From Escherichia coli (GTDB lineage Bacteria > Pseudomonadota > Gammaproteobacteria > Enterobacterales > Enterobacteriaceae): a DNA stretch of 64,000 nucleotides. The notes beneath the pieces are model-generated. The model ran no database searches, was not told the origin of the DNA, and saw nothing but the letters and a program-made list of their open reading frames with translations. The stretch is taken from NCBI RefSeq assembly GCF_050320075.1, contig NZ_CP190018.1, one strand, 5' to 3'. The translations under genes and the position numbers were made by a program. Below, one piece after another: positions 37,296-53,941 of this stretch (its first letter is position 1; the number at the start of each line of letters is the position of its first letter).

Positions 37296-37637
37296 ATGAT
37301 GAAAAAAAGTATTCTGGCGTTTCTGTTACTCACCAGTTCTGCAGCGGCGCTGGCTGCACCGCAGGTGATTACCGTTAGCCGTTTTGAAGTGGGTAAAGAC
37401 AAATGGGCGTTTAATCGCGAAGAGGTGATGCTGACTTGCCGACCGGGTAATGCTTTGTATGTCATCAACCCAAGTACCCTCGTGCAGTATCCTTTAAACG
37501 ATATCGCACAAAAGGAAGTTGCCAGTGGGAAGACTAAAGCCCAACCCATTTCGGTGATTCAGATTGATGATCCTAACAATCCCGGCGAAAAAATGAGTCT
37601 GGCACCGTTTATAGAACGAGCTGAAAAACTCTGTTAA
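37296..37637 (+). CDS. yebY: DUF2511 protein YebY
   Basis: 113-aa ORF with a signal peptide. Confidence 0.85.
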
Positions 37638-37667
37638 TTACCTAAAATAGCCTTTTGATTTCCAATA

Positions 37668-37712
37668 AAAAAACCGCCTCAGTTCTTTCACCAGAACGGG
37701 CGGTTTTTAACA
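37668..37712. terminator. bidirectional intrinsic terminator after yebY
   Basis: AAAAACCGCC...GGCGGTTTTT hairpin with flanking A- and T-runs. Confidence 0.55.
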
Positions 37713-37795
37713 TTTAAGCTGATGGCCACCGCGCTTTTTATTGACCATTTTGCACGCAAACTGGAAAACCTGGCGTCGTCATCTATTCTTAAAGG

Positions 37796-37898
37796 GCAAG
37801 GCAACTAAGCCTGCATTAATGCCAACTTTTAGCGCACGGCTCTCTCCCAAGAGCCATTTCCCTGGACCGAATACAGGAATCGTGTTCGGTCTCTTTTT
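37796..37898 (+). ncRNA. sdsR: small RNA SdsR (RyeB); the antisense sRNA RyeA (SraC) is expected to overlap on the - strand
   Basis: GCAAGGCAACTAAGCCTGCATTAATGCCAACTTTTAGCGCACGGCTCTCTCCCAAGAGCC...CGAATACAGGAATCGTGTTCGGTCTCTTTTT matches the recalled SdsR sequence, including its terminator hairpin and U-tail; located between yebY and pphA as expected. Confidence 0.7.
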
Positions 37899-38032
37899 AT
37901 CTGTTAAAAGCCAGAAGCATTCCCTTCGCTGACTTTATAGTCAACCATAACACACACTCTACTGTCTGAGTCCAGCGTTTTTTAACATTCTTGTTAAGAT
38001 TATGTGATCTTTAGCGCGGGAGGAAAATATTG

Positions 38033-38689
38033 ATGAAACAGCCTGCGCCCGTTTATCAGAGAATTGCGGGTCATCAATGGCGACATATCTGGCTTTCAGG
38101 CGATATACACGGTTGTCTTGAGCAGTTGCGCCGCAAATTATGGCATTGTGGTTTTGATCCGTGGCGAGATTTACTTATCTCAGTGGGAGACGTTATCGAT
38201 CGTGGGCCGCAAAGTTTACGTTGCCTGCAGTTACTGGAACAACATTGGGTTCGTGCGGTAAGAGGCAATCATGAACAGATGGCGATGGATGCGCTGGCAT
38301 CCCAGCAGATGTCTTTATGGTTGATGAATGGCGGCGACTGGTTTATTGCGCTGGCAGATAATCAACAGAAACAAGCGAAAACGGCGCTGGAAAAATGTCA
38401 GCATTTGCCCTTTATTCTTGAAGTACACAGTCGCACCGGCAAGCATATTATTGCTCATGCCGATTATCCAGATGATGTTTATGAATGGCAAAAGGACGTC
38501 GATTTGCATCAGGTCTTGTGGAGCCGCTCGCGATTAAGTGAACGCCAAAAAGTGCAGGGAATTACAGGTGCTGATCATTTCTGGTTTGGTCATACACCGT
38601 TGCGCCATCGCGTGGATATTGGCAACCTGCATTATATTGATACAGGTGTTGTCTTTGGGGGCGAACTGACTGTTGTGCAATTGCAATAA
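38033..38689 (+). CDS. pphA: serine/threonine protein phosphatase 1
   Basis: Metallophosphatase motifs GDIHGC and GDVIDRG...GNHE. Confidence 0.9.
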   Translation: MKQPAPVYQRIAGHQWRHIWLSGDIHGCLEQLRRKLWHCGFDPWRDLLISVGDVIDRGPQSLRCLQLLEQHWVRAVRGNHEQMAMDALASQQMSLWLMNGGDWFIALADNQQKQAKTALEKCQHLPFILEVHSRTGKHIIAHADYPDDVYEWQKDVDLHQVLWSRSRLSERQKVQGITGADHFWFGHTPLRHRVDIGNLHYIDTGVVFGGELTVVQLQ

Positions 38690-52741: not shown

Positions 52742-53410
52742 TCCTTCCTCAATCTTGAGTAACCCCGTCGTTGAAGGGTTACTCAATTCATCCTGATTAT
52801 ACGCACTGTCATGGTGCAACTGCTTCAAATTAAAACTCTGGTCTGACTTCAAATAATTATCATATTATTTATTTGCGTAACGGGATATCAGAAAAAGATA
52901 TTTAGCCCATTAATTTATTAGGATGTTTACATCGGATTTGTGATTAAGCGTGGTATTATTTATTAGCGAAACGTTTCTCTCTTGATTTTTTTGCGCATTC
53001 ATCAATTTTTCTTATTTTAAATTTACAATACCTTTGGCGATTGACTTCTCTTTGGGGTGATCGATAGCCGTTAACTGACTGTTTTATGAGAAAAATTGAT
53101 ATAACTTTTTATTCATTGCATAGCAGAAAATGTGATATTGCACGCACTATGTAATAACTTCTCCCACTGGCCTGGAACAACTGAACTTATTGAACTATGT
53201 TAGAAAATACGTCAGTTTAAGTATCTGCCTGAACTGGCAAGGTTAAGCACAATGATATATCGGCGCGTATTCCGTTGCATAAGTGTGCAAAAAAAGTGGA
53301 AGACGTATCGAGATTTGTGCGTCTGATCGAGACATGTTTAAAAATGGCTTGCCATAATTAACGTTGTATGTGATAACAGATTTCGGGTTAAACGAGGTAC
53401 AGTTCTGTTT

Positions 53411-53554
53411 ATGTGTGGCATTTTCAGTAAAGAAGTCCTGAGTAAACACGTTGACGTTGAATACCGCTTCTCTGCCGAGCCTTATATTGGTGCCTCATGC
53501 AGTAATGTGTCAGTTTTATCTATGTTATGCCTGCGGGCGAAGAAAACAATCTAA
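53411..53554 (+). CDS. yobF: small protein YobF (47 aa)
   Basis: [47 protein letters not shown], 13 bp upstream of cspC; too short for the ORF track. Confidence 0.75.
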
Positions 53555-53566
53555 GGAATTTTTCAA

Positions 53567-53776
53567 ATGGCAAAGATTAAAGGTCAGGTTAAGTGGTTCA
53601 ACGAGTCTAAAGGTTTTGGCTTCATTACTCCGGCTGATGGCAGCAAAGACGTGTTCGTACACTTCTCTGCAATCCAGGGTAATGGTTTCAAAACTCTGGC
53701 TGAAGGTCAGAACGTTGAGTTCGAAATTCAGGACGGTCAGAAAGGTCCGGCAGCTGTTAACGTAACAGCTATCTGA
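53567..53776 (+). CDS. cspC: cold-shock-family protein CspC
   Basis: [37 protein letters not shown]. Confidence 0.95.
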
Positions 53777-53822
53777 TCGAATCCACTGATCTGAAGTGTG
53801 AATACGCTTCAATCTCGCTATA

Positions 53823-53850
53823 AAGCCTCGTCGAATGCGAGGCTTTTTAC
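53823..53850 (+). terminator. rho-independent terminator after cspC
   Basis: AAAGCCTCG-TCGAATG-CGAGGCTTTTT. Confidence 0.6.
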
Positions 53851-53941
53851 TTTGCTTTATCTTCGCTCCAGTCGTTCGGATATTTGCCCGCCGCGTGATT
53901 CGCGTTACACTTGCGGCCTTTAGTATCCTGCCGGAGTTGTC

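Follow-up and report, generated by a model that had tools for sequence, protein, structure and literature searches.

What the gap between yebY and pphA encodes in this stretch of Escherichia coli DNA, a small protein of 63 amino acids or a pair of RNAs read from opposite strands, is the question addressed here. The gap covers positions 37638-38032 (395 nt) of the window, by which we mean the whole stretch of DNA analysed, 64,000 nt in length. It is bounded upstream by yebY (37296-37637, + strand) and downstream by pphA, annotated as encoding phosphoprotein phosphatase 1 (38033-38689, + strand) and preceded by a GGAGG ribosome-binding site at 38020-38024. An earlier note, made from the sequence alone, had assigned positions 37640-38030, between yebY and pphA, to the SdsR/RyeA sense-antisense small-RNA locus. 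Both flanking genes are those it named and the locus was rightly chosen; the interval itself takes in nearly all of the intergenic region, not the RNAs as such. We conclude that this is almost certainly the E. coli sdsR/ryeA locus (ryeB/sraC), a convergent, fully overlapping pair of non-coding RNAs, and that the 63-aa open reading frame lying across it is accidental.

Identity of the yebY-pphA intergenic region

The full 64,000-nt window was scanned against Rfam at gathering thresholds, the check on which the earlier note had made its assignment depend. Three matches were returned, two of them in the yebY-pphA gap. On the + strand, SdsR_RyeB (RF00111) matches 37799-37898 over the whole of its model (1-100 of 100) at 114.4 bits against a gathering score of 38 (E 1.8e-21). 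On the - strand, SraC_RyeA (RF00101) matches 37902-37758, again over the whole model (1-145 of 145), at 175.1 bits against a gathering score of 37 (E 2.9e-40). The third match in the window is to the cspA thermoregulator (RF01766) at 53391-53851 (+, 137.7 bits), in the yobF-cspC region. Since the coding part of this match is a CspA-family paralogue that maps to K-12 cspC, the match is read as paralogy to cspA and not as a demonstrated thermosensor.

The curated record of K-12 MG1655 annotates two ncRNAs on opposite strands of the pphA-yebY gap, ryeA (b4432, 272 nt) and sdsR (b4433, 104 nt). Comparison with these annotated genes, which had likewise been proposed as a check, bore the assignment out: K-12 sdsR maps to 37795-37898 on the + strand with all 104 of its 104 nucleotides identical, and K-12 ryeA maps to 37936-37665 on the - strand with 268 of 272 identical. 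Over the intergenic regions as a whole, global alignment of K-12 MG1655 with the window gave 391 identical positions out of 395. The four differences, at 37716, 37725, 37731 and 37922, all lie in segments that belong to RyeA only, and none falls in the overlap with SdsR.

The 391-nt interval is present in 5,425 of 5,426 complete E. coli genomes. Identity over this interval (37640-38030) is 99% or higher in 1,794 E. coli genomes and between 95 and 99% in 3,631, and many chromosomes carry it with 100% identity. This spread, together with the position of all four K-12 differences outside the invariant SdsR, is consistent with a constraint that would act on sdsR only. In PGAP-annotated E. coli records, unlike the curated K-12 record, no feature is annotated under the interval. 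Nothing in the window sequence contradicts the sdsR/ryeA reading; the locus is already known, and it contains no departure from the K-12 reference that would suggest new biology.

Transcript ends, promoters and terminators

The ends and promoters of both RNAs were mapped in K-12 by Choi et al. 2019 (PMC6610125), and we placed them in the window by means of the mutagenesis and fusion primers published with that work. The sdsR(+11) primer BHI+11R ends at 37806, which sets the SdsR +1 at G37796, 1 nt downstream of the annotated end, in agreement with that work. The published 3' ends, +100 to +102, correspond to 37895-37897, and the RNA is about 101-104 nt long, the K-12 annotation giving 104 nt. 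SdsR folds at -35.2 kcal/mol with a z score of -4.1.

Immediately upstream lies the sigma-S promoter of sdsR (37762-37789, +), made up of a -35 element TGGAAA at 37762-37767, a 16-nt spacer, a C at -13 (37783), a -10 element TATTCT at 37784-37789 and a TAA discriminator. A C at -13, a 16-nt spacer and an A/T-rich discriminator are the hallmarks of sigma-S promoters according to Fröhlich et al. 2012, and all three were found here. The -10 hexamer TATTCT, at -12 to -7, is the one changed to CTCGAG in the published promoter mutant (PM_SdsRF, PM_SdsRR). The promoter as a whole is identical to that of K-12, and over 106 loci, among the matches listed, it is 80-82% conserved.

The Rho-independent terminator of SdsR (37864-37898, +) was located by a terminator scan combined with folding; its stem pairs 11 bp around a loop of 7 nt (37864-37892) and is followed by CUUUUU. 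The earlier note's placement of SdsR on the + strand with its terminator is therefore upheld. The interrupted U-tract (CUCUUUUUA) of this E. coli terminator would fit the read-through that has been reported for it.

The last 23 bp of sdsR (37876-37898) are known from the literature as a prophage attachment core, the att site of the Salmonella phage PhiW104 lying in the last 23 bp of ryeB; in the window the site is unoccupied. A lambdoid prophage carrying int, xis, ralR, recT and recE is inserted exactly at the 3' end of sdsR in 228 of 5,426 complete E. coli genomes, O26:H11 str. 11368 among them, and the junction abuts the equivalent of window position 37899, in agreement with the PhiW104 att site. 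In E. coli PV0838, for example, genes for an integrase, an excisionase, RalR, RecT and RecE lie at the end of sdsR (locus L124, 4140-4360; window 37876-37899). In such lysogens SdsR stays whole with a phage-derived terminator half (CGTATTCGGTCTTTTTTT), and RyeA loses its promoter and about its first 38 nt. A different insertion is found in E. coli FDAARGOS_944 (locus L125, 3249-3946), where IS1A has inserted some 10 nt into sdsR (window ~37805) and parts the sigma-S promoter from most of SdsR; the annotation of this strain also gives copD as truncated.

On the - strand, ryeA (sraC) extends over 37665-37936. At about 270 nt it is much longer than SdsR and than the 145-nt Rfam model, which takes in just its central part (37902-37758), and it contains the whole complement of SdsR, as the earlier note had expected of a RyeA on the opposite strand: sdsR lies wholly inside ryeA, which exceeds it by 38 nt on the 3' side of SdsR and by 130 nt on the 5' side. 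The RyeA +1 was placed at A37936, as the ryeA(+10) primer BHIA+10R ends at 37927, and 3RACE_RyeAF agrees. The sigma-70 promoter of ryeA (37944-37952, -) comprises a TG at 37952-37951, a t, and TATGGT at 37949-37944, and is identical to that of K-12. We read TGtTATGGT as a probable extended -10 element. Its TATGGT is the hexamer changed to CTCGAG in the published ryeA promoter mutant (RyeA-p3, PM_RyeAF); both -10 hexamers whose mutation abolishes expression in K-12 are thus unchanged in the window. A consensus promoter scan detected neither of the two mapped promoters and gave one unrelated weak match at 37621-37648, a miss that is expected where -35 boxes are weak and the promoters are of the sigma-S and extended -10 types.

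The published 3' ends of RyeA, +261 to +270, correspond to 37676-37667 and lie at the yebY terminator. This terminator is a bidirectional hairpin (37669-37708) that ends yebY on the + strand, with a run of five U at 37704-37708, and RyeA on the - strand, with a run of seven U at 37673-37667. It folds at -19.8 kcal/mol (z -6.4) on the + strand and at -20.6 kcal/mol (z -4.6) on the - strand. The terminator scan missed the hairpin, which is clear on folding, because of a bulge in its stem. Over the whole of RyeA the fold signal is weak (z -2.05, MFE frequency 0.0001), and a global RyeA structure was dropped for this reason. A 38-aa open reading frame on the - strand inside RyeA (37804-37688) was likewise set aside, having no family match and being absent from the protein collection.

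The Rfam match to RyeA carries less than its score suggests. RF00101 scores above threshold at every SdsR locus scored (L097, L082, L017, L044 and others), those of Yersinia, Serratia, Shewanella and Paraglaciecola included, and does so even in taxa that are reported to lack sraC; it was for this reason not accepted as proof of RyeA in its own right. As most of the model is made up of the SdsR reverse complement, a match to it is not independent of SdsR and should not be taken to show that RyeA is transcribed. Of the enterobacteria that Fröhlich et al. 2012 surveyed, only about half were reported to carry sraC, and the position of its promoter varied from one species to another. In K-12, RyeA has been demonstrated by primer extension, RACE, in vitro transcription and Northern blots, and the case for a RyeA transcript in the present DNA rests on the base-for-base identity of its promoter, start and terminator with those of K-12.

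Conservation and competing readings of the locus

An exact-pattern scan with the SdsR core, using one genome per species, returned at least 120 loci, which span Escherichia, Salmonella, Citrobacter, Klebsiella, Enterobacter, Serratia, Yersinia, Dickeya, Rahnella, Sodalis and others. Among the matches listed, the immediate upstream neighbour is yebY, on the same strand, in 107 of 120 loci, and pphA lies directly downstream in only five of the 94 with enough flanking sequence. These counts agree with the published description of sdsR as having a constant 5' neighbour and a variable 3' neighbour (Fröhlich et al. 2012). When 106 enterobacterial loci among the matches listed were compared with the window, mean identity was 0.80-1.00 at 37760-37899 and 0.24-0.68 elsewhere. 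The sharp edges of this conserved block indicate that the selected unit is the sdsR promoter together with SdsR, and not the arms that belong to RyeA only.

The Rfam structure of SdsR is conserved along with its sequence. Among the matches listed, 97 distinct sequences showed 96.3% pairing in this structure, against 22-47% in slid controls; eight pairs carry changes on both sides, and none of 500 shuffles reached any of the observed measures. The covariation signal is carried by the terminator helix, in which 99.7% of cells are paired and five of the 11 pairs show compensatory changes (the same 97 sequences among the matches listed). Helix 2 is uninformative in this respect, since its bases are fixed by the search pattern. 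Helix 1, with 76% of cells paired in the MAFFT alignment, was counted neither for nor against the structure, as its alignment is disturbed by indels in the variable 5' region.

Homologues of SdsR scoring above the gathering threshold also occur beyond the Enterobacterales, in Shewanella at 82-88 bits (L025, L044, L056, L059, L110) and in Paraglaciecola at 62.5 bits (L100, 11011-11110). These homologues have in common the invariant core UAGCGCACGGCUCU...AGAGCCAUUCCCCU, a terminator stem in which changes are compensated, and a -10 element resembling CTACACTAA. No yebY was found upstream of the Shewanella and Paraglaciecola loci.

The 63-aa frame (37741-37932, +) has a TTG start and was taken from a list of open reading frames. 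It exists there as the earlier note described it; the description of it as mis-called was overstated, the list being mechanical and no pipeline or protein database calling the frame. The judgement that it is almost certainly non-coding holds. Neither the TTG nor the in-frame ATG at 37819 has a Shine-Dalgarno-like 4-mer within the 20 nt that precede it, the product has no Pfam or NCBIfam match, and no CDS is annotated at these positions in K-12 or PGAP records. No exact copy of the 63-aa product occurs among about 15 billion predicted proteins, even though thousands of E. coli genomes are available. Since the TTG falls between the strong yebY terminator and the sdsR promoter, no mapped transcript carries it.

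The frame is also broken in relatives while the RNA stays invariant. In only six of 112 loci, among the matches listed, is any + strand frame open over the equivalent interval; the six include E. coli, E. albertii and one unrelated Paraglaciecola locus, and in-frame stops occur in Salmonella, Citrobacter, Klebsiella, Atlantibacter and Escherichia sp. ESNIH1. The invariant middle of the translated frame (PALMPTFSARLSPKSHFPGPNTGIVFGLF) is the invariant SdsR read as codons, and both ends diverge freely: K-12 differs by S61F, lysogens acquire a new C-terminus, and E. albertii has another start and another end. Neither a preserved frame, then, nor an initiation signal together with a known family or database entry was found for this product, and the frame is a by-product of a stop-free reading over a conserved RNA gene, not a coding sequence.

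These observations leave next to no likelihood to the reading in which the 63-aa frame is a real Escherichia-specific small protein and the locus a dual-function RNA plus peptide. The frame is open with its TTG in E. coli, and a related longer frame is open in E. albertii, as such a protein would require, but the start codon stands outside every mapped transcript, no Shine-Dalgarno sequence precedes either possible start, and the sole conserved stretch of peptide is translated SdsR. It is very improbable, too, that the RyeA-only segments (37665-37794 and 37899-37936) have a function of their own, such as trans pairing or strain-specific stability, or that rare read-through from yebY allows the 63-aa frame to be translated as an Escherichia-specific micro-protein. 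The pair of overlapping non-coding RNAs is the reading that we retain.

Within that reading, RyeA might be a dispensable antisense by-product, SdsR alone being selected and the "antitoxin" role incidental. The fall of conservation to background level immediately outside the sdsR promoter and SdsR speaks for this, as does the finding of an exact TGnTATGGT downstream of sdsR in only 26 of 115 loci, at variable distance, among the matches listed; moreover, about 4% of E. coli genomes have lost the RyeA promoter to a prophage at the sdsR 3' end and have kept SdsR. Against it, mutation of the ryeA promoter in K-12 has consequences: SdsR appears earlier, pphA rises about 4-fold in fusions, and the levels of tolC and yhcB shift. 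In addition, ryeA-ryeB is the most abundant stationary-phase cluster of RNase III-cleaved double-stranded RNA captured by p19, and the ryeA promoter in the window is identical to the active one of K-12. On balance we regard a dispensable RyeA as unlikely and retain the pair in which RyeA would act as the antagonist of SdsR.

For annotation, 37795-37898 (+) should be labelled sdsR and 37936-37665 (-) ryeA, and the 63-aa frame should be suppressed, since both RNAs are annotated in the curated K-12 record and the region is left blank by PGAP. As a sigma-S-dependent Hfq small RNA with a cis-antisense antagonist, the locus is a textbook case, and the significance of finding it here is small, being confined to annotation.

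Proposed mechanism and comparison with known systems

In the model that we propose, the anatomy is read from the window, and the dynamics, that is, expression, Hfq, RNase III and targets, are transferred from experiments in K-12 and Salmonella. The sigma-S promoter (TGGAAA, 16-nt spacer, cTATTCT) would drive SdsR from G37796 to its own terminator, and the sigma-70 extended -10 promoter (TGtTATGGT) would drive RyeA from A37936 through all of sdsR to the bidirectional yebY terminator. In vitro, E-sigma-S transcribes sdsR, and ryeA is transcribed by E-sigma70 only. By analogy with K-12, RyeA would predominate in exponential phase. SdsR in K-12 and Salmonella is expressed in stationary phase in an RpoS-dependent manner and regulates in trans with the help of Hfq; given the 100% sequence identity, both properties may be expected of the SdsR in the window.

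If the K-12 findings apply, SdsR and RyeA would pair over the full length of SdsR and RNase III would cut the duplex, each RNA thereby destroying the other. Transcription of ryeA would also, as in K-12, lower both sdsR transcription and sdsR-pphA read-through by transcriptional interference. In published work most transcription of pphA comes from read-through that starts at the sdsR promoter, and the interference by the ryeA promoter is probably due to polymerase collision. RyeA supplied in trans has no such effect. Overexpression of SdsR is toxic through repression of yhcB, and RyeA counteracts this toxicity. The label "toxin" reflects these published overexpression phenotypes, and the mutS target did not behave as expected in the promoter mutants.

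Compared with K-12 SdsR (RF00111, b4433), the gene in the window agrees in sequence, in its sigma-S promoter, in its layout of three hairpins with a Rho-independent terminator and in its upstream neighbour, yebY, with no difference within the gene. Compared with K-12 RyeA (RF00101, b4432), the start site, the -10 box, the terminator and the full overlap with sdsR are the same, and the window differs by four SNPs in RyeA-only segments.

Among toxin-antitoxin systems the pair is classed as type VIII, RNA toxin with RNA antitoxin, because of the mutual destruction of the two RNAs and because the toxicity of SdsR overexpression is countered by RyeA. TADB 3.0 recognises two experimentally validated type VIII kinds, SdsR-RyeA and creTA, and the arrangement that defines the former, RNAs on opposite strands that overlap (distance <0), is present in the window. 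Growth inhibition by SdsR and its relief by RyeA would be expected here by analogy with the published K-12 work. In creTA, as in SdsR-RyeA, toxin and antitoxin are both RNAs; the creTA RNAs, however, may lie on the same or on opposite strands and are linked to CRISPR-Cas, whereas SdsR and RyeA lie on opposite strands and overlap, and SdsR is in addition an ordinary trans-acting regulator. Type I systems resemble SdsR/RyeA in that the toxic partner is neutralised by an antisense RNA encoded on the other strand, with the involvement of RNase III. The type I toxin is a protein, while the "toxin" SdsR is a non-coding RNA whose overlapping reading frame is without evidence of translation. A 2021 eLife report (PMC8687705) describes a system that, although from a different organism and apparently unrelated in sequence to SdsR/RyeA, seems to share the same architecture, a trans-acting small RNA paired with a cis-encoded antagonist that is processed by RNase III.
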